Translations under genes and position numbers: made by a program
Assembly (NCBI GenBank): GCA_965242515.1
Contig: OZ251448.1
Span: 518,512 to 582,511 of the forward strand
Direction: 5' to 3'
Length of the DNA: 64,000 nucleotides
Source of the DNA: Bdellovibrionales bacterium
Lineage (GTDB): Bacteria; Bdellovibrionota; Bdellovibrionia; Bdellovibrionales; UBA1609
The notes under the pieces: generated by a model
Database searches by the model: none
Seen by the model: the letters and a program-made list of their open reading frames with translations, nothing else
Told to the model about the DNA's origin: nothing
Part shown: positions 5,086-57,901 of the stretch, piece after piece
How the letters are laid out: the number at the start of each line of letters is the position of its first letter
Position numbering within the stretch: position 1 is the stretch's first letter

Positions 5086-7968
5086 TTAAGATATAGGTTT
5101 TAAATCAGCCCAATTATTGCCAACCGAAAGATTCACCTTTAAAGGCACTTTCCACTTAACTATGTTTTCCATAATATCCCTTATATGTTGCACTTCTTCT
5201 TCCACCTTCGTTTTTTCACATTCAAATAATAGTTCATCATGTATCTGTAATAAAATAGGAGAATATAACTTATCTCTTAATTTCACCATCGCGAGCTTTA
5301 CTAAATCACCCGCCGTGCCTTGAATGGGAGTGTTAACAGCCGCTCTTTCACCAAACTTCTTAGTATGAAATCGCATAGAAGATAGCTCTTGCAACTGCCT
5401 CCGCCTGCCAAATAATGTCTCCACATATCCTCTCTTACCCGCCTCACACACTAAATAATTCATATACTCCCTAACTTTTTTAAATTTTTTAAAATACGCA
5501 TCTATTAACCCCTTCGCCTCTGCCACAGAAATACCTAAAGACTCCGATAATGCAAAAGCCCCTTGCCCATAAATTAAACCAAAATTAACAGCCTTCGCAG
5601 CATACCTTTGCTTGTCACTTACCTGCTCTAACGACACACCATACACCTTAGCTGCCATGGCTTTGTGAATATCTAGTCCCTTTTCAAAAGCTAAACATAA
5701 AGCAGGGTCTTGCGTTAAATGAGCAAGTACCCTTAACTCAATTTGCGAATAATCTGATGCCACCAACACACATCCTGCTCTTGCTACAAAAGCCCGTCTG
5801 ACTCGCTTACCACGGCTATTACGAATGGGAATGTTTTGTAAATTAGGATGCACACTAGATAGCCTCCCCGTAGCCGTCAACGCTTGACGAAAATGAGTGT
5901 GCACCCGCCCTCCTGTTTCCTTCCGGATTAAAGTCGGTAAAGCCGATAAATAAGTACTCTTTAACTTAAAAAGCTCTCTGTGTTCTAAAATTAAAGGGAT
6001 AATAGCATGCTCCCCACAGAGCTTATTTAATACATCCGCATCTGTCGAATAACCTGTTTTTGTTTTACGAAGAGCCTTTAACCCTAACTTATTAAATAAT
6101 ATGTCCGCTAATTGCTTAGGGCTAGATAAATTAAACTTTAAACCTGCATGATCAAAAATCCGCTTTTCTAACACCACTAAATCTTTGTCCACTGAATGCT
6201 CTTGCACTTTTAACTCATCCACATTTAATTTAATACCTATGCTCTCCATCTCAAACAATACAGCAATAAGAGGTAATTCCATTTTTTGATAAATGTCCGT
6301 CATACCCTGTGTAGCTAATTTATCTTCTAATAAGTTTTTTAAAGTAAGATGCAAACGATATATGTCATACACTCCTAACTGGCTAATGTCATCTTTATTT
6401 AAATAATTGGCACAAAGCCTTTCAAACCCTAACGATAAAGAAGAATGCACTAAATAACTAGCCATCATTGTACACCAACCAGCAAGTAACGAGCCAGAAC
6501 GCATATCCTTCACCTCTGTTTGACCTTCAAACACCACACCTTTACCACACATACCTCCCTCTCCCCTAAACGGGAAAAACTTTTTCCACACACTTTTTAA
6601 ATCATACCCGTGCCACATAATATTTTTTTGCAATAGTAACTGCCCTACTTTTTCTAATCTCAAGCCCGCTAAATTACACATTTTATTCTTGTAAGCTAAA
6701 AAAAACTGACCCTTATGCACCAACACCCATACCTTAGCATAAGGCTTAACAATGTCACATAAATCAATTAAAGAGGGAAAGATGATATTTTTTTCACTTT
6801 CTTTATTGTTATTCCTGCTCCCATTGTCATTCCCTCCCCCATTGTCATTCCCGCTCCCATTGTCATTCCCTCCCCCATTGTCATTCCCGCTCCCATTGTC
6901 ATTCCCGTTCCTATTGTCATTCCCGCTCCTATTGTCATTCCCGCGGAGGCGGGAATCCAAACTTGTACGCATACAAGTGGCATTCTGGATTCCTGCCTTC
7001 GCAGGAATGACGGCTGACGAGGGAATGACGGCGGATGCAGGAATGACGGCGGATGCGGGCGTGGTGGCTGACTCTGACATGACAGCAGACGCAGAAACAA
7101 CATAAGATGGGCATAGTGCAAAATACTCTTTCTTTATAGCAAAACCAAGCTCTTTTAATAAACTCTCTAACGCTTTTTGATTTATCTTTTCGCGATGGTA
7201 TTTAACTTTATTAGCAATATTTAAACTAGTTACAATACGTACTAAATCTCTAGACAAAAAAGCATTCTTCTTACTATCATTTAATTTTTTTGCTAATCTA
7301 TCAGGTATTTGTGAGATATTTTTGTAAATACCATCTAATCCCTTATACTGCTTTAATAACTTCACAGCTCCCTTCGGACCAATACCTGCAACCCCCGGTA
7401 TATTATCACTACTGTCACCTACTAACGATAAATAATCTATCATTTGTAAAGGTTTGACACCCCATTTTTGCTCTACACCCATTATATCGTAACTTCTATC
7501 CCTCATAGGATCGTACATAGAAATATCTGCATCCACTAATTGAGCAAAATCTTTATCGCCACTCACAATAACCACCTTAAAACCCTTAGCCTTGCCCACT
7601 ATAGCTAAAGAGCCTATGATGTCGTCAGCCTCATACCCTGCATACTCTATCATCGGAATGCCTAACACTTTCGTCATTTTCTTTACATAAGGCACTTGTT
7701 TTTTTAAATCATCCGGCATTTCTCCCCGATGAGCCTTATATTGCTTATACATATCGTAACGAAAAGAAGGTTTTTCATGATCAAAACAATACACTAAATG
7801 CTGAGCTGAATATTCTCTTACAAATTTCACCGTCGTAGATAAAAAACCATACAACGCATTTGTCGGAACACCCTTAGGACTCTTTAAATGAGGAGATACA
7901 GCATAATAAGAACGAAAAAATAACGAACTCACATCCATAAGATATAAAGTGGGTTTTTTATTTGTCAT
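5086..7968 (-). CDS. polA: DNA polymerase I, carrying an about 100-aa in-frame repeat insertion between the 5'-nuclease and the central domain
   Basis: 5'-nuclease motifs (LMDVSSLFFRSYYA, GYEADDIIG, VSGDKDFAQL, GVAGIGPKGA). Polymerase motifs A (DYSQIELRVLAH), B (QRYAAKAVNFGLIYG) and C (QIHDELLFE). Confidence 0.95.
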   Translation of the reverse strand: MTNKKPTLYLMDVSSLFFRSYYAVSPHLKSPKGVPTNALYGFLSTTVKFVREYSAQHLVYCFDHEKPSFRYDMYKQYKAHRGEMPDDLKKQVPYVKKMTKVLGIPMIEYAGYEADDIIGSLAIVGKAKGFKVVIVSGDKDFAQLVDADISMYDPMRDRSYDIMGVEQKWGVKPLQMIDYLSLVGDSSDNIPGVAGIGPKGAVKLLKQYKGLDGIYKNISQIPDRLAKKLNDSKKNAFLSRDLVRIVTSLNIANKVKYHREKINQKALESLLKELGFAIKKEYFALCPSYVVSASAVMSESATTPASAVIPASAVIPSSAVIPAKAGIQNATCMRTSLDSRLRGNDNRSGNDNRNGNDNGSGNDNGGGNDNGSGNDNGGGNDNGSRNNNKESEKNIIFPSLIDLCDIVKPYAKVWVLVHKGQFFLAYKNKMCNLAGLRLEKVGQLLLQKNIMWHGYDLKSVWKKFFPFRGEGGMCGKGVVFEGQTEVKDMRSGSLLAGWCTMMASYLVHSSLSLGFERLCANYLNKDDISQLGVYDIYRLHLTLKNLLEDKLATQGMTDIYQKMELPLIAVLFEMESIGIKLNVDELKVQEHSVDKDLVVLEKRIFDHAGLKFNLSSPKQLADILFNKLGLKALRKTKTGYSTDADVLNKLCGEHAIIPLILEHRELFKLKSTYLSALPTLIRKETGGRVHTHFRQALTATGRLSSVHPNLQNIPIRNSRGKRVRRAFVARAGCVLVASDYSQIELRVLAHLTQDPALCLAFEKGLDIHKAMAAKVYGVSLEQVSDKQRYAAKAVNFGLIYGQGAFALSESLGISVAEAKGLIDAYFKKFKKVREYMNYLVCEAGKRGYVETLFGRRRQLQELSSMRFHTKKFGERAAVNTPIQGTAGDLVKLAMVKLRDKLYSPILLQIHDELLFECEKTKVEEEVQHIRDIMENIVKWKVPLKVNLSVGNNWADLKPIS
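6805..7100. repeat. Composite palindromic repeat inside polA: seven 18-bp tandem units, three nested hairpins, and inverted 18-bp units
   Basis: attgtcattccc recurs every 18 bp at 6823, 6841, 6859, 6877, 6895, 6913 and 6931. Hairpins: attcccgc-ggag-gcgggaat (6937-6956), acttgta-cgca-tacaagt (6961-6978), attcctgc-cttc-gcaggaat (6989-7008). About three inverted gaatgacggcgga units follow (7005-7060). Both strands have long open frames across it. Confidence 0.9.
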
Positions 7969-22282: not shown

Positions 22283-22960
22283 TTAAGGTGCAGGGTTAGA
22301 GTGGTTATTAAAAGGCGATTCTTCCTCCGGTATTTCAATCTGTTTTAGTGGTTGTGTTGTGTCTCGGAAGTCTGCACCTTCTATCTTAGCATTTTTTAAA
22401 TCATCTTTTGTTAGAAACTTCACAGATCGTAAATCAGCACCTCGGAAGTCTGTATTTTTTATAATAGCATCTTTGAAATTTGCGTGTGAAAAAAATGAGC
22501 TACCTCGGAAGTCTGTATCTTCTAGATTTGCTCTTACCAATATTGCTCGATCTAAGTCAGCACCACGAAAATCAGCACCTTTTAGATTCGCTCCAGTAAA
22601 ATCTGACGCTGTTAAATCAGCACCACGAAAATCAGCACCTTGTAAATTCGCACCCCTAAAATTTGACCATCTTATATGCACACCTGGCATATATGCATTC
22701 TCAAAATCTGCACCTTGTAAATTACATTTATTTACTTTTAATTCATCTCTAGATTTTATATAGATATCATCTCTAAAATTATCTATATTACAATTAGATT
22801 CTATTTTATCTCTATCTACAGGTGGTGCATAACGAGATAAGTCTTCAGCTACTTGTCGGGTGGGGTTTTGTGGTGGAGGTTTATGAGCTTGCCTCTTTGG
22901 CTTAGTGGTAACACAAGCCCCAAGGCTTAAAAATAGCAATAAAGTAATAATATGTTTCAT
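22283..22960 (-). CDS. Pentapeptide-repeat lipoprotein
   Basis: Lipobox LSLGAC. Long run of A(D/N)LxG-type pentapeptides (ANLQGADFRGADLTASDFTGANLKGADFRGADL...). AGGAGG RBS at 22969-22974. Confidence 0.85.
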   Translation of the reverse strand: MKHIITLLLFLSLGACVTTKPKRQAHKPPPQNPTRQVAEDLSRYAPPVDRDKIESNCNIDNFRDDIYIKSRDELKVNKCNLQGADFENAYMPGVHIRWSNFRGANLQGADFRGADLTASDFTGANLKGADFRGADLDRAILVRANLEDTDFRGSSFFSHANFKDAIIKNTDFRGADLRSVKFLTKDDLKNAKIEGADFRDTTQPLKQIEIPEEESPFNNHSNPAP

Positions 22961-47984: not shown

Positions 47985-49109
47985 TTAAAGGTTTTTGATT
48001 TGACAAAACTTCCAGAAAGGTAACGACCTTCCACCTTTATTTGCTAAACCTATATCTTTTGTGCTGGTATGTACTTGATAAAATTCTGGTATATTTGTTC
48101 GTTCTTTAAAGTATTTTATATGTTTAGAAATAGTTGTTTGCGATAACTTACATTCCACTGCAAATTGAGGGTTTTTATTTTTTAAAACAACAAAATCTAT
48201 TTCTCTTCCTTGTCGGTCTCTTAAGTACCTAAGCTCCATACAATAGCCCTCAGTATCTTGTATATAATGGCAGTATTTTAATAAATGAGAAGCCACCATA
48301 TTTTCAAATTGTGAGCTAGGGGAGCTTGCCCCTGCCCAATCCCACAAGTACAGTTTTTGTTCTTTTTTGACAGCTTTAATTTTAGGGCTACCAAAAGGAG
48401 CAATACGATAACATATATACATAGCCTCTAAAATATCTAACCACCGGCAAAGTGTGTTATGGCTTACTTGTAAATCTTGCCTAAGGTTTTCTATAGAGAG
48501 AATAGACCCTGCTCTATCTATTAAAGCTTGTATTAATACTTCAATGGTGGATATTTCTTTTATATTTTCTAAACTATTAATATCTGTGTGAACTACTCGA
48601 TTAAGCCTTTCTAAAGACCATCTTCTATAAGTTTTTTGACTGCCTGATAAAATAGGCTCTGGAAAACCTCCTAAATGCAACATAGTAGTTACATCATCTT
48701 GATTGGGCTTTGTAATAAGTTCCGTAAGGCTAAAAGGATGCAAACGAAAGTAACGGTAGCGTCCAAAAAGAGAATCCCCACCTTTTTTATAATGATCTAA
48801 ACGGGCAGAGCCAGTGACAATAATTTTAACCTGATCTCCATAAGTATCGTAAAAACCTTTAATAAAACTTCGCCAATTTCGGAATTTATGAATTTCATCA
48901 AAAACAAGTTTTTTATTGTGTATGGGTATTTGGTTTTTGATGATAGACTGGCGATGCTCTACATTGTCCCAGTTTAAATAAGATGCTTTTTCCTTAATAA
49001 TTTGCCGGCTTAAAGTGGTTTTTCCTACCTGCCTCGGACCTCCAATAAAAACCATCTTTTGACGAAGGTCTTGAGTAATAGGAGCTTTTAAATACCGGAC
49101 TCTTTTCAT
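47985..49109 (-). CDS. AAA-type ATPase (AAA_14 + DUF4143-like architecture)
   Basis: Walker A GGPRQVGKTT and Walker B LVFDEIH. The C-terminal half with YLRDRQGREIDFVV resembles the restriction-endonuclease-like DUF4143 module, recalled from memory. Confidence 0.7.
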   Translation of the reverse strand: MKRVRYLKAPITQDLRQKMVFIGGPRQVGKTTLSRQIIKEKASYLNWDNVEHRQSIIKNQIPIHNKKLVFDEIHKFRNWRSFIKGFYDTYGDQVKIIVTGSARLDHYKKGGDSLFGRYRYFRLHPFSLTELITKPNQDDVTTMLHLGGFPEPILSGSQKTYRRWSLERLNRVVHTDINSLENIKEISTIEVLIQALIDRAGSILSIENLRQDLQVSHNTLCRWLDILEAMYICYRIAPFGSPKIKAVKKEQKLYLWDWAGASSPSSQFENMVASHLLKYCHYIQDTEGYCMELRYLRDRQGREIDFVVLKNKNPQFAVECKLSQTTISKHIKYFKERTNIPEFYQVHTSTKDIGLANKGGRSLPFWKFCQIKNL

Positions 49110-49261: not shown

Positions 49262-49301
49262 TTGGCATTCTGCAAAAATAGATGCATAATATTGGTATAA
49301 T
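49262..49301 (+). promoter_or_regulatory. Candidate sigma-70 promoter(s): TTGGCA-N17-CATAAT and an extended -10 TGGTATAAT
   Basis: ttggca at 49262-67, 17-nt spacer, cataat at 49285-90. Then tggtataat ends at 49301, directly abutting the heptanucleotide repeat. Confidence 0.4.
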
Positions 49302-49370
49302 CAATAATCAATAATCAATAATCAATAATCAATAATCAATAATCAATAATCAATAATCAATAATCAATAA
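49302..49370 (+). repeat. Heptanucleotide microsatellite (CAATAAT) x9 plus a partial unit
   Basis: Read directly. Lies between the candidate -10 and the AGAGGAGG RBS (49374-81) of the lipoprotein gene. Confidence 0.95.
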
Positions 49371-49385
49371 AAAAGAGGAGGATTT

Positions 49386-49962
49386 TATGATGAAAAATAT
49401 TATTTTAATACTATGTGCTTTAAGTCTTTTAGGGGCTTGTCGCAAGTCTGATTCTAATAAGTCTTAAGCCACACAAGGAGCATCTCAATCCACACAAGGA
49501 GCAGGTGGTTCTGCTATAAACCCAAAAATAATTACTGAATCACCTAATCAGCAATGCGGAGGGTTAGATGATTATAGGGAAGAGCCATGTGTTTGTCAGG
49601 GTGCATTAGCAATATGTGGTCCTAGTCAGGTGCCAGCACCGCAAGGGGTTACTCCTGTACAGAAAAAATTTGATTGTAGTACTCAGCCAAATCTATTAGA
49701 CGGAGGGGGAACTATCGTAACTGTTACATCCTATTTAGGCACTAACACACAAGCCAATGTGCATGTTGGGAATCCTCTTATGAATTTATTGTCGTTATCC
49801 ATTACACCTCCTGCAAACCATCATTTAGCATGTATGCAGGTTGTTACAGATAGCAACAATCAAGTGAAACAAAAAATTCATATTGATAACTCACCTAGGG
49901 GAATAGCTTCTTGTCAATATGGCTTACAAACTTACTCAGCATCTTGTAAAGTAGTGCAATAA
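49386..49962 (+). pseudogene. Disrupted small Cys-rich lipoprotein gene
   Basis: The ATG frame gives MMKNIILILCALSLLGAC-PQV-stop (TGA at 49449). The mature part (ATQGASQSTQGAGGS...CGGLDDYREEPCVCQGALAICGPSQ-VPAPQG...) is in the +1 frame and is preceded by an in-frame TAA at 49465. The tracked ORF 49630-49962 starts only at an internal GTG. Confidence 0.55.
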
Positions 49963-55767: not shown

Positions 55768-56214
55768 CTATTTTTTAGATAGCAACTGATCTAGCTTATA
55801 ATGTAGCTCTTTTTGAGCTTGCTTCATTTCTGCCCTAAGTTCTTTATGATCTGCTCTTAGATGCTCAATCGCCTTATTGGTATCTGTCCTTAAATGCTCA
55901 ATCATTTTAGTAGTATCCGCCCTTAAATGCTCAATCATTTTATGGGTATCTGATCTAAGAAGATCAATCGCTTTGTGGGTATCTAATCTAAGAAGATCAA
56001 TCGCTTTGTGAGTATCTGATCTAAGAAGATCAATCGCTTTATGGGTATCTATTCTAGAGGTATCAATTTTTTTATTAGTATCAGTGATATGGTTATTAAG
56101 CTTATCGTCTATGTTTTTGGTCTTCATAATCAAATAAACCAACATCACAATTAAAGCCACACCCCAAATAGGGACAGCTGAATTCAAAGCACTTAAAAAA
56201 TTGATAAAGCTCAT
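55768..56214 (-). CDS. Membrane-anchored protein built from about seven tandem 11-aa repeats (DTHKAIDLLRS type)
   Basis: N-terminal TM segment (VPIWGVALIVMLVYLIM). 33-bp DNA tandem repeats over about 55860-56090 encode DTHKAIDLLRS/DTHKMIEHLRA/DTTKMIEHLRT.... Confidence 0.65.
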   Translation of the reverse strand: MSFINFLSALNSAVPIWGVALIVMLVYLIMKTKNIDDKLNNHITDTNKKIDTSRIDTHKAIDLLRSDTHKAIDLLRLDTHKAIDLLRSDTHKMIEHLRADTTKMIEHLRTDTNKAIEHLRADHKELRAEMKQAQKELHYKLDQLLSKK

Positions 56215-57145: not shown

Positions 57146-57901
57146 CTAATTTTTTTGATGCGTAATAATCGGCATTTCTTTTATAGCTTGGGCAAAGGCT
57201 TTATCTGTTTTGCAATCTCGCATAAGGAAGGCTAAAGCTGATTCTCCAAAGATATCTACCAGCTCTTGTATAGCTTTAGGTAAATAATCTTCTTTCAGTA
57301 AAGTTTTTCTAGCATAAATACGAGGCCAGCCAGATAAGTAATGATAACGACAATAAGAATCTGTAACAGCTGGTTGATCACAACTTTCATGCTGACAGTA
57401 AAACTTACCTTCGGCATCTTTAATAAGATCAATATCTTTTTGATGTTGATTTATTTTTTCTAACTCTTTTTTTAACTCAGTGATTTTTTTTTGACGCTTG
57501 CCGTTGGTTGCAACTTTAATACTCTGGTACTCTTTAGAAGGTGATTTTTTTTTGTGTAAAGATGAAGGTGGCAGGTTATCAGCAACAGATGATGTAGTTC
57601 TAAGCCCAACATCTGCAGGTGTGGCATCTGCTTTCACAGAACTTGCTTTTTTCTCTGCTACTGCATCTACTTGCGTAGCATCCGCTTGCGTAGCGTCTGT
57701 TTTCGCAAACACTACCTTCTGCTTTGCTACATCTACTTGCGTAGCATCCGCTTGCGTAGCGTCTGTTTTCGCAAACACTACCTTCTGCTTTGCTACATCT
57801 GTTTTCGTAGCATCCGCTTTCGCACTATCTGCTTTGGCATCAACAGCTTTTTTACGAGCCTTATCACCAAGCAAGTTTTTAAAAACTTTTATAAGTCCCA
57901 T
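57146..57901 (-). CDS. Hypothetical protein with 22-aa tandem repeats and a C-terminal Cys/His cluster
   Basis: A 66-bp direct repeat x2 (57664-57795) encodes DATQADATQVDVAKQKVVFAKT twice. The C-terminus has FYCQHESCDQPAVTDSYCRYHY, possibly a zinc ribbon. Confidence 0.55.
   Translation of the reverse strand: MGLIKVFKNLLGDKARKKAVDAKADSAKADATKTDVAKQKVVFAKTDATQADATQVDVAKQKVVFAKTDATQADATQVDAVAEKKASSVKADATPADVGLRTTSSVADNLPPSSLHKKKSPSKEYQSIKVATNGKRQKKITELKKELEKINQHQKDIDLIKDAEGKFYCQHESCDQPAVTDSYCRYHYLSGWPRIYARKTLLKEDYLPKAIQELVDIFGESALAFLMRDCKTDKAFAQAIKEMPIITHQKN

Follow-up and report, generated by a model that had tools for sequence, protein, structure and literature searches.

An in-frame block of CGTC-1-type hairpin repeats in the interdomain linker of DNA polymerase I from a Bdellovibrionales bacterium

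We studied a 64,000-nucleotide stretch of contig OZ251448.1 from a Bdellovibrionales bacterium (hereafter the window; positions are counted from its first letter), in which the gene of DNA polymerase I, polA (5086–7968, minus strand), carries a repeat-derived block of about 291 nt, or 97 codons (6805–7095). We found that this block is very probably a head-to-head dimer of repetitive extragenic palindromes (REPs) of the CGTC-1 type, extended on the head sides by arrays of 18-bp units, and tolerated in the flexible tether of the enzyme. The components of this reading that have direct support are the family identity, the position of the block, the predicted disorder of the encoded segment, the read support, and the intact enzyme motifs. 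The most likely interpretation is that of a tolerated passenger in a disordered tether, acting as a local source of in-frame length variation.

Structure of the repeat block

The borders of the block were drawn from GC content, tandem and inverted repeats, the predicted fold, predicted local distance difference test (pLDDT) scores below 50, and contig tiling. The GC content is 51–57%, compared to about 30–36% in the surroundings, i.e., approximately 20 points higher. Tandem Repeats Finder (TRF) detected 7.8 copies of the 18-bp unit ATTGTCATTCCCGCTCCC at 6805–6944 (score 217); for the inverse unit, GCAGGAATGACGGCGGAT, it counted 3.1 copies at 7001–7056. The left array (6805–6930, plus strand) consists of seven 18-bp units, in each of which the head TGTC is followed by ATTCCCGC, the 5' stem half, and by 6 nt; units 2-3 and 4-5 are exact duplicates of each other over 36 bp, and the array is translated in the polA frame as (GNDNGS)n. 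It is followed by the first complete hairpin repeat, copy A (TGTCATTCCCGCGGAGGCGGGAATCCAA; 6933–6960, plus strand, 28 nt), of the form TGTC-ATTCCCGC-GGAG-GCGGGAAT-CCA, with a perfect 8-bp stem, a 4-nt loop, a CCA tail and the polA reading LDSRLRGND; its stem-loop, the perfect hairpin ATTCCCGC-GGAG-GCGGGAAT, occupies 6937–6956. A spacer hairpin, ACTTGTA-CGCA-TACAAGT (6961–6978), lies between this copy and the next one, and forms the tip of the predicted fold. Copy B (CGTCATTCCTGCGAAGGCAGGAATCCAG; 6985–7012, minus strand, 28 nt) has the form CGTC-ATTCCTGC-GAAG-GCAGGAAT-CCA, with the stem-loop ATTCCTGC-CTTC-GCAGGAAT at 6989–7008, and is read as VIPAKAGIQ. The two copies, whose starts are separated by 52 nt, lie on opposite strands with outward-pointing heads, and thus constitute a head-to-head dimer. 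The right array (7013–7095, minus strand) is built from 18-bp head and half-stem units, of which two, with heads at 7029 and 7047, are intact, and a further two or three are increasingly decayed outward; a repeat search beyond TRF followed it to 7090 with falling identity. Its polA reading is SAVIPA/SAVIPS, then ...SAVMSESATTPA.

An initial annotation of this DNA had described seven 18-bp tandem units with inverted copies on the far side, three nested hairpins, and long open reading frames (ORFs) on both strands. The units and the inverted copies are present as described, and the ORFs exist (6752–7105, plus strand, and 6768–7121, minus strand). The hairpins are real as well; they are, however, better represented as one 28-nt hairpin repeat in two inverted copies, with the spacer hairpin in addition. 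Three of the six frames, including that of polA, are free of stop codons across 6805–7100, and translation of the polA frame reproduced the peptide quoted in that annotation, ...SAVIPASAVIPSSAVIPAKAGIQNATCMRTSLDSRLRGNDN(RS/RN/GS/GG)GNDN...; an example of a linker peptide encoded in the block is GNDNGSGNDNGGGNDNGSR. Used as a protein query, the 117-aa plus-strand ORF returned a single weak match (E 3.5e-4).

Matches to the hairpin pattern are not expected by chance, as shuffling of the window yields an expectation of 0.01. In addition, GTCATTCCC occurs eight times in the window, every time in the block, compared to 0.21 expected occurrences. The whole 300 nt folds as a single long imperfect hairpin, with a predicted energy of -58.8 kcal/mol as single-stranded DNA (ssDNA; z -6.45) and -131.5 kcal/mol as RNA (z -6.58). 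As DNA, the block would be a quasi-palindrome of approximately 250 bp, which is likely to be prone to in-frame length change. An Rfam scan of 6500–7400 produced only chance-level matches to eukaryotic microRNAs and long non-coding RNAs, far under the gathering scores, and no curated RNA family.

It should be noted that the block is bordered by two direct copies of the 10-nt sequence CTTTCTTTAT (6797–6806 and 7128–7137). We considered them as a target-site duplication of the type left by miniature inverted-repeat transposable elements, and set this reading aside in favor of a probable chance occurrence: a repeat of this kind is found in 73 of 254 500-nt segments of this AT-rich sequence, one of the copies is located inside conserved codons (AIKKE), and the 331 nt that the block and the duplication would add together are not divisible by three.

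Identity of the repeat family

A full-text literature search with the stem sequence led to two papers (PMC3733652 and PMC11893778). The consensus of the 28-nt Neisseria Transformation Sequence (NTS) is CGTCATTCCCGCGMAVGCGGGAATCYRG (PMC11893778, Nat Commun 2025). Copy A matches it at 25 of 28 positions (three mismatches, with the oriented head and tail included), and copy B at 26 of 28, its two differences together forming a compensatory stem pair in which T-A replaces C-G. The CGTC-tagged REPs are characterized by a CGTC or TGTC head, an 8-bp stem starting with AT, a 4-nt loop, a CCA tail, and an arrangement mostly in head-to-head dimers (PMC3733652). Both copies in the window have the TGTC/CGTC head, the 8-bp stem starting with AT, the 4-nt loop and the CCA tail of CGTC-1. 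According to Di Nocera et al. 2013 (PMC3733652), CGTC-1 is the same as the Neisseria dRS3 and as the Rickettsia palindromic element (RPE) RPE-6 of R. conorii, and the supplementary table of that paper gives VIPAKAGI as the peptide encoded by intragenic CGTC-1 copies in R. conorii. Judged by its sequence, the block is a CGTC-1-type REP and belongs to the same family as dRS3/NTS and RPE-6. The kinship to RPE-6 in particular is supported by the published equivalence of CGTC-1 and RPE-6 (PMC3733652) and by the identical peptide, VIPAKAGI, and would hold to the extent that these two hold. The initial annotation had likened the block to ORF-tolerant palindromic elements such as the RPEs, and had named peptide signatures of this kind; it was right on both points.

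Repeats of this family have been tied to a nuclease. The GIY-YIG protein SsnA binds the NTS as ssDNA and cuts on the head side, just 5' of it, at a distance of 3 nt from the consensus in Neisseria; it is reported to modulate recombination of transforming DNA, and is spatially associated with such repeats, termed Ssn-related motifs (SRM), across phyla (PMC11893778). In the available part of that paper, strand-specific binding and cleavage of ssDNA hairpins by Ssn is given for Neisseria and Wolbachia repeats only, and the cognate gene, ssn, encodes a small GIY-YIG protein (cd10448) that is often flanked by the repeats (PMC11893778). A regular-expression form of the published degenerate SRM motif had no match in the window and missed the true copies A and B, too; therefore, the NTS consensus with mismatches was used instead.

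The host gene and its linker

The polA gene encodes 960 aa, with an expected size of about 108 kDa, in an intact ORF, as identified from the ORF list, Pfam matches, and an alignment with 18 homologues (47–60% identity to the PolA of the window; those with names are from Bdellovibrionales and Bdellovibrionaceae metagenome-assembled genomes, MAGs). Names given to a few homologues of 46–55% identity are the basis for calling the host Bdellovibrionota-like. Pfam placed the 5'-nuclease at aa 7–256 and the family A polymerase domain at aa 584–955 (PF02739, PF01367 and PF00476 at E 5.5e-146). All residues that are invariant in the alignment are kept in both the 5'-nuclease and the polymerase domain, as are the catalytic motifs. 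The stretch that follows ...LLKELGF... is the most length-variable segment of PolA across the 18 homologues, and the PolA of the window has the longest version of it. The repeat block is located in this linker, after the 5'-nuclease domain, in agreement with the initial annotation, which had proposed an insertion at an inter-domain linker and named orthologue alignment and structure prediction as ways to examine it. An AlphaFold run with the 18-homologue alignment gave pLDDT values of 24–34 and no secondary structure for aa 286–391, below the value of 50 throughout, compared to approximately 90 for the flanking domains. The approximately 97 block-derived residues make up most of this predicted disordered linker, which separates the 5'-nuclease from the rest of PolA. 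We take this segment to correspond to the tether that is cut by proteases in E. coli Pol I, with release of the Klenow fragment. The E. coli tether can be cleaved with both fragments staying active.

A second lineage-specific insertion in PolA, ...PFRGEGGMCGKGVVFEGQTEVKDMRSGS..., was observed at 6496–6561 of the window (aa 470–491), in the exonuclease-like domain. Its position is common to the PolA homologues P0001–P0005, its pLDDT of less than 50 predicts disorder, and it is not repeat-derived.

Linkers of related polymerases

Among the best 120 PolA homologues, three have a recognizable copy of the element, and the intact signature is restricted to the lineage of the window. In one relative (stretch L001, polymerase P0008), a GGGCATGAC variant is located in the same linker, strand and reading frame, with 18-bp units of its own, and is read as DARFRGHDGDGGHD...GKRGHDGDG. 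The polymerase P0008 is 98% identical to its cluster mate P0123, and the difference consists almost wholly of one gap, a 16-aa repeat indel in this linker. Three more variant hairpins, GTCATACCCGC-GCAA-GCGGGTAT, are found between genes in the 22 kb of L001 (4491–4513, 7863–7885 and 8486–8508); thus, some genomes of the clade are populated by the family, as opposed to the single locus in the 64 kb of the window. In another relative (L002, P0005), a decayed copy, TGGATTCCCATGCGCACAGGAATAAC, occupies the same linker, strand and frame, with the reading MDSHAHRNNE. The linkers of the nearest relatives, P0001–P0004, have unrelated sequence. Taken together, remains of the element are found in the same linker and frame in three lineages, those of the window, L001 and L002. 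In Rickettsia, orthologues carry different RPE groups at one site, which raises the same question of a hotspot versus a common origin (PMC3767692). The linker at the block is probably a place where the length of this repair polymerase changes fast and in frame.

Assembly support and differences between samples

The locus is present in four public sequencing runs, X1–X4, of which X1 and X2 represent one sample and X3 a second sample. In X1 and X2, contigs at 99% identity or higher tile 6600–7300 without a break, including both junctions and the center of the block, at the depth of the flanks (approximately 4–10x); the exact tiles are 6600–6846, 6841–6882, 6853–6906, 6877–6938, 6915–7010 and 6986–7300. 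In X3, exact contigs reach approximately 7039 at flank depth, and the right flank farther on belongs to a slightly different strain. The assembly of the polA block is sound: the possibility of misassembly had been raised in the initial annotation together with a check of read support, and the contigs built from reads uphold the assembly.

Up to 6747, the X4 contig hardly differs from the window; it diverges thereafter, with no exact words for 6748–6980, so that the block or its left flank differs between samples. Past 6747 the X4 contig still resembles PolA, with ...TSTLGIELKPY in place of ...SLIDLCDIVKPY in the window. The divergence suggests a recombination boundary beside the repeat block in the strain of that sample.

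At 85% likeness, the depth of the element core is 100–400 times that of the flanks in all four runs, and the loose ends of the core lead to many different flanks, both AT-rich and GC-rich. This excess and the variety of the flanks indicate that the samples contain many other copies of the element, at least some of them from other organisms. No close relative of the PolA came out of a metagenome scan, and no empty-site allele was obtained; no exact match of a neighboring protein of the window was found in public contigs.

Distribution of the family

The 24-nt core, GTCATTCCCGC-N4-GCGGGAATC, was found in at least 120 genome stretches in a scan that included one genome per species. Among the matches listed, the hosts include Pseudomonadota, Bacteroidota, Chloroflexota, Nitrospirales, Planctomycetes, members of the candidate phyla radiation (Saccharibacteria and Paceibacteria), Neisseria lactamica and a Bdellovibrionales MAG; adjacent copies are mostly in +/- orientation, at a spacing of 42–113 nt, and the loops are chiefly GAAA, GAAG or GCAG. 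Copies outside the polA locus were found in other genomes, including a relative (L001), and in the same samples. An all-against-all comparison of small ORFs revealed a 94-aa gene with a Pfam GIY-YIG domain in a Methylotenera MAG (L042; gene at 6147–6428, minus strand), bracketed by two inverted NTS copies (6117–6466 for the whole arrangement), with a homologue of 51% identity in L097. This is an independent instance of the published NTS-ssn-NTS arrangement.

Tandem half-site arrays

We also analyzed the orphan halves around 240 hairpins (up to three mismatches) in the listed genome loci and the window. Of the orphan halves of the "head + left stem" type, 43 lie upstream, on the head side, and six downstream (binomial p = 6e-8); orphan right halves around the same hairpins are found four times upstream and four times downstream. 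A metagenome scan for at least three tandem half-sites yielded at least 120 loci. Among the matches listed, 143 metagenome arrays have periods of 15–30 nt, and 108 of them start at a complete hairpin, while three end at one. In the same set, a period that is a multiple of three (3n) was found for 15 of 19 arrays in open frames of at least 900 nt versus 49 of 124 elsewhere (Fisher p = 0.002). Genuine array host genes confirmed with Pfam encode a DNA photolyase, an acyl-CoA dehydrogenase, a transketolase and a UvrD/PD-(D/E)XK helicase.

Head-side arrays of half-sites are a general trait of the family and are not restricted to polA. At the genome loci L014, L038, L065 and L067 and at the metagenome loci L123–L242, complete NTS-type hairpins very often have such arrays, confined to the head side, with up to 35 units. 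In L014 (Nitrospirales), GGGAATGAC and GGGCATGAC units are mixed in one array.

Half-site arrays are not described in the available parts of PMC3733652 and PMC11893778, and the word "tandem" is absent from the latter. In the R. japonica paper, ATGAC was found to be enriched in regions adjoining RPEs (PMC3767692). Since the head side is the side cut by SsnA, cleavage or stalling may be linked to array growth. A broader proposal is that half-site arrays recur regularly and with one polarity, outward from the head, throughout the dRS3/NTS/RPE-6 family, and that they are footprints of growth through cleavage or stalling followed by slipped re-priming; a 3n filter in genes would then turn them into a generator of fast-changing disordered linkers, as in PolA, photolyase, transketolase and UvrD-type helicases. 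We consider this proposal tentative, and in its entirety rather unlikely. The polarity of arrays across many phyla nevertheless offers a testable handle on how the repeat family multiplies, and could matter more than the polA case. The mode of multiplication was left open in both papers: no dedicated transposase was identified by Di Nocera et al. (PMC3733652), and mobility is treated in the Ssn paper as no more than a hypothesis (PMC11893778).

Other repeats in the window

A perfect heptanucleotide repeat, (ATAATCA) x 10.6, is located at 49297–49370, between the ORFs 47985–49109 (minus strand) and 49630–49962 (plus strand), and this tract could be prone to slippage. Putative coding repeats include 33/66-bp tandem repeats with 83–89% matches (55849–56082, inside the ORF 55768–56214, minus strand) and 2.4 copies of a 66-bp repeat with 96% matches (57664–57819, inside the ORF 57146–57901, minus strand). 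Nested 15/30/60-bp tandem repeats with the unit TAAATCAGCACCACG are found at 22553–22667, inside the ORF 22283–22960 (minus strand), where the 15-nt period would suit a protein with five-residue repeats.

Interpretation and alternative explanations

Under the interpretation of a tolerated passenger, a CGTC-1-type dimer would sit in the one part of PolA that accepts almost any sequence, the tether behind the 5'-nuclease, and the insert would be close to neutral for the enzyme. The arrays probably grew in place by duplication, because there is an exact 36-bp duplication and the units decay outward; inside genes, only arrays with 3n periods would be expected to survive. The persistence of the block is attributable to a length that is a multiple of three, the lack of stop codons in the polA frame, and a product that is presumably a disordered spacer rich in Gly, Asn, Asp, Ser and Ala.

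Several observations weigh against this interpretation. Related remains in two other lineages are compatible with a random passenger only through the argument of a permissive site. Both stems are perfect, one of them with a compensatory pair, so that the hairpins could be maintained for a reason. Searches of the 64-kb window with the hairpin pattern, GTCATTCCC and the NTS consensus found no copy of the element beyond the polA block, and a tblastn search with the L042 GIY-YIG protein found no match in the window, L001 or L002; because there is neither a second copy nor an Ssn homologue in 64 kb, active multi-copy residence in this genome cannot be claimed. Finally, the number of 18-bp units cannot be verified with 31-mer contigs, and one array contig in X3 has approximately seven times the depth of the flanks.

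The leading alternative is that the block has been co-opted, either as a hotspot of recombination or length change cut by an Ssn nuclease, or as an mRNA hairpin (-131 kcal/mol) that delays translation or changes the stability of the polA mRNA between the two halves of the enzyme, or as a long tether that is itself under selection. That SsnA is reported to cut ssDNA beside such hairpins and to modulate recombination of transforming DNA (PMC11893778) is consistent with co-option, as are the very stable predicted folds, the perfect stems with one compensatory pair, and the recurrence of element remains in the same linker and frame in three lineages. Conversely, a recognizable copy is present in only 3 of the best 120 PolA homologues, the linkers of the nearest relatives, P0001–P0004, are unrelated in sequence, no ssn gene was found in the 64-kb window, and the same architecture is found in unrelated enzymes and in intergenic DNA. 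Moreover, quasi-palindrome correction during replication can make compensatory changes without selection, and could have done so here. We consider co-option improbable, and passenger status remains the preferred reading.

It is less probable still that the insertion inactivated polA and that the gene is a decaying pseudogene. Approximately 100 extra residues in the middle of an enzyme, in a clade with small genomes (contigs of the relatives are 1.3–1.9 Mb), might suggest decay; however, the ORF of 960 codons is uninterrupted, the invariant 5'-nuclease and polymerase residues are kept, the Pfam score is strong, and the domains are modeled with confidence. The insert is also confined to the tether, the counterpart of which in E. 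coli Pol I is cleavable with both fragments remaining active.

There is very little chance that the block is an assembly artefact or chimera, in which repeat-rich reads of another, more abundant organism were joined into polA. The 100–400-fold excess depth of the core at 85% likeness, with loose ends that lead to many flanks, some of them GC-rich, is what such an artefact might produce. Against it, contigs at 99% identity or higher bridge unique polA sequence, both ends of the block and its center at flank depth in X1 and X2, and those of X3 extend to approximately 7039; the reading frame is kept, and two relatives from independent assemblies have related sequence at the same place. The variability and frequent low complexity of PolA linkers in the clade might suggest a native linker that resembles the repeat family by chance or convergence, but this explanation is effectively refuted by two 28-nt consensus matches with three and two mismatches (shuffles give an expectation of 0.01 even for the looser hairpin pattern), the head-to-head dimer geometry typical of the family, and a GC content 20 points above that of the surroundings.

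Comparison with known systems

The initial annotation had called the presence of such an element in an essential enzyme unusual. It is less so, since REP-decorated repair proteins have been published, one with its insert in the corresponding linker region: DNA polymerase I figures among such proteins in Di Nocera et al., and an additional file of their paper places a CGTC-3 dimer at residues 338–367 of the R. palustris PolA (RPE_4821, 1012 aa) (PMC3733652). The dimer in the window is similar in that the protein is the same and a REP dimer is read through in frame, and residues 338–367 are just beyond the end of the 5'-nuclease as placed in the PolA of the window, which indicates that the phenomenon itself was already known. 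The differences, according to the available part of the source, are that the R. palustris dimer belongs to another subfamily, with a 9-bp stem and the peptide VMAGLDPAIH...RVKPAGD, that it adds 30 residues compared to approximately 97, and that no arrays are reported for it.

The closest system is CGTC-1/dRS3-NTS itself, with which the element shares a wide phylogenetic spread, head-to-head dimers, and intragenic copies that encode VIPAKAGI. Unlike that system as described, the window contains one dimer in 64 kb, with no ssn gene found nearby. The dimer is flanked by long arrays of 18-bp half-sites, and the block accounts for approximately 97 element-derived codons, whereas the largest intragenic clusters in the available part of PMC3733652 encode 43–82 residues. 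In addition, the host is Bdellovibrionota-like, a group that is not reported in the available parts of PMC3733652 and PMC11893778.

RPE-6, RPE-4 and RPE-7 (Ogata et al.; PMC3767692) are likewise in-frame, non-disruptive insertions in housekeeping genes, including those of replication and repair; they share the ATGAC motif, and differing variants are found at the same site among orthologues (PMC3767692). As in the case of RPE-6, the block in the window is in frame, leaves the host ORF intact, and lies outside the folded core, in a variable linker with pLDDT below 50. It differs from the RPEs in its non-Rickettsia host, in the tandem expansion of half-sites, and in its length, which exceeds the 68–192 nt reported for R. 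japonica (PMC3767692). A literature search for an RPE inside a Rickettsia polA returned nothing specific, and the R. japonica list includes dnaE, uvrC and a recB-family gene, but not polA (PMC3767692).

REPINs, which consist of two inverted REP hairpins with a short spacer, form one long hairpin and are non-autonomous (Bertels and Rainey 2011, PMC3116915), are similar in architecture. They are distinguished by a GTAG head and by the REP-associated tyrosine transposase (RAYT) (PMC3116915), compared to the TGTC/CGTC heads in the window; the protein tied to the CGTC-1-type element in the literature is a GIY-YIG nuclease instead, and a RAYT with CGTC repeats on its flanks was not found by Di Nocera et al., so that none would be expected with such repeats (PMC3733652).

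In annotation, the block should be labeled as a dRS3/NTS/RPE-6-type repeat in an intact polA, and the 117-aa ORFs on the two strands should be removed as spurious. Compared to these systems, as far as the available parts of the two CGTC papers describe them, the host lineage, the size (approximately 97 codons) and the arrays are new, so that the known range of in-frame, protein-decorating palindromes is extended to a Bdellovibrionota-like lineage.

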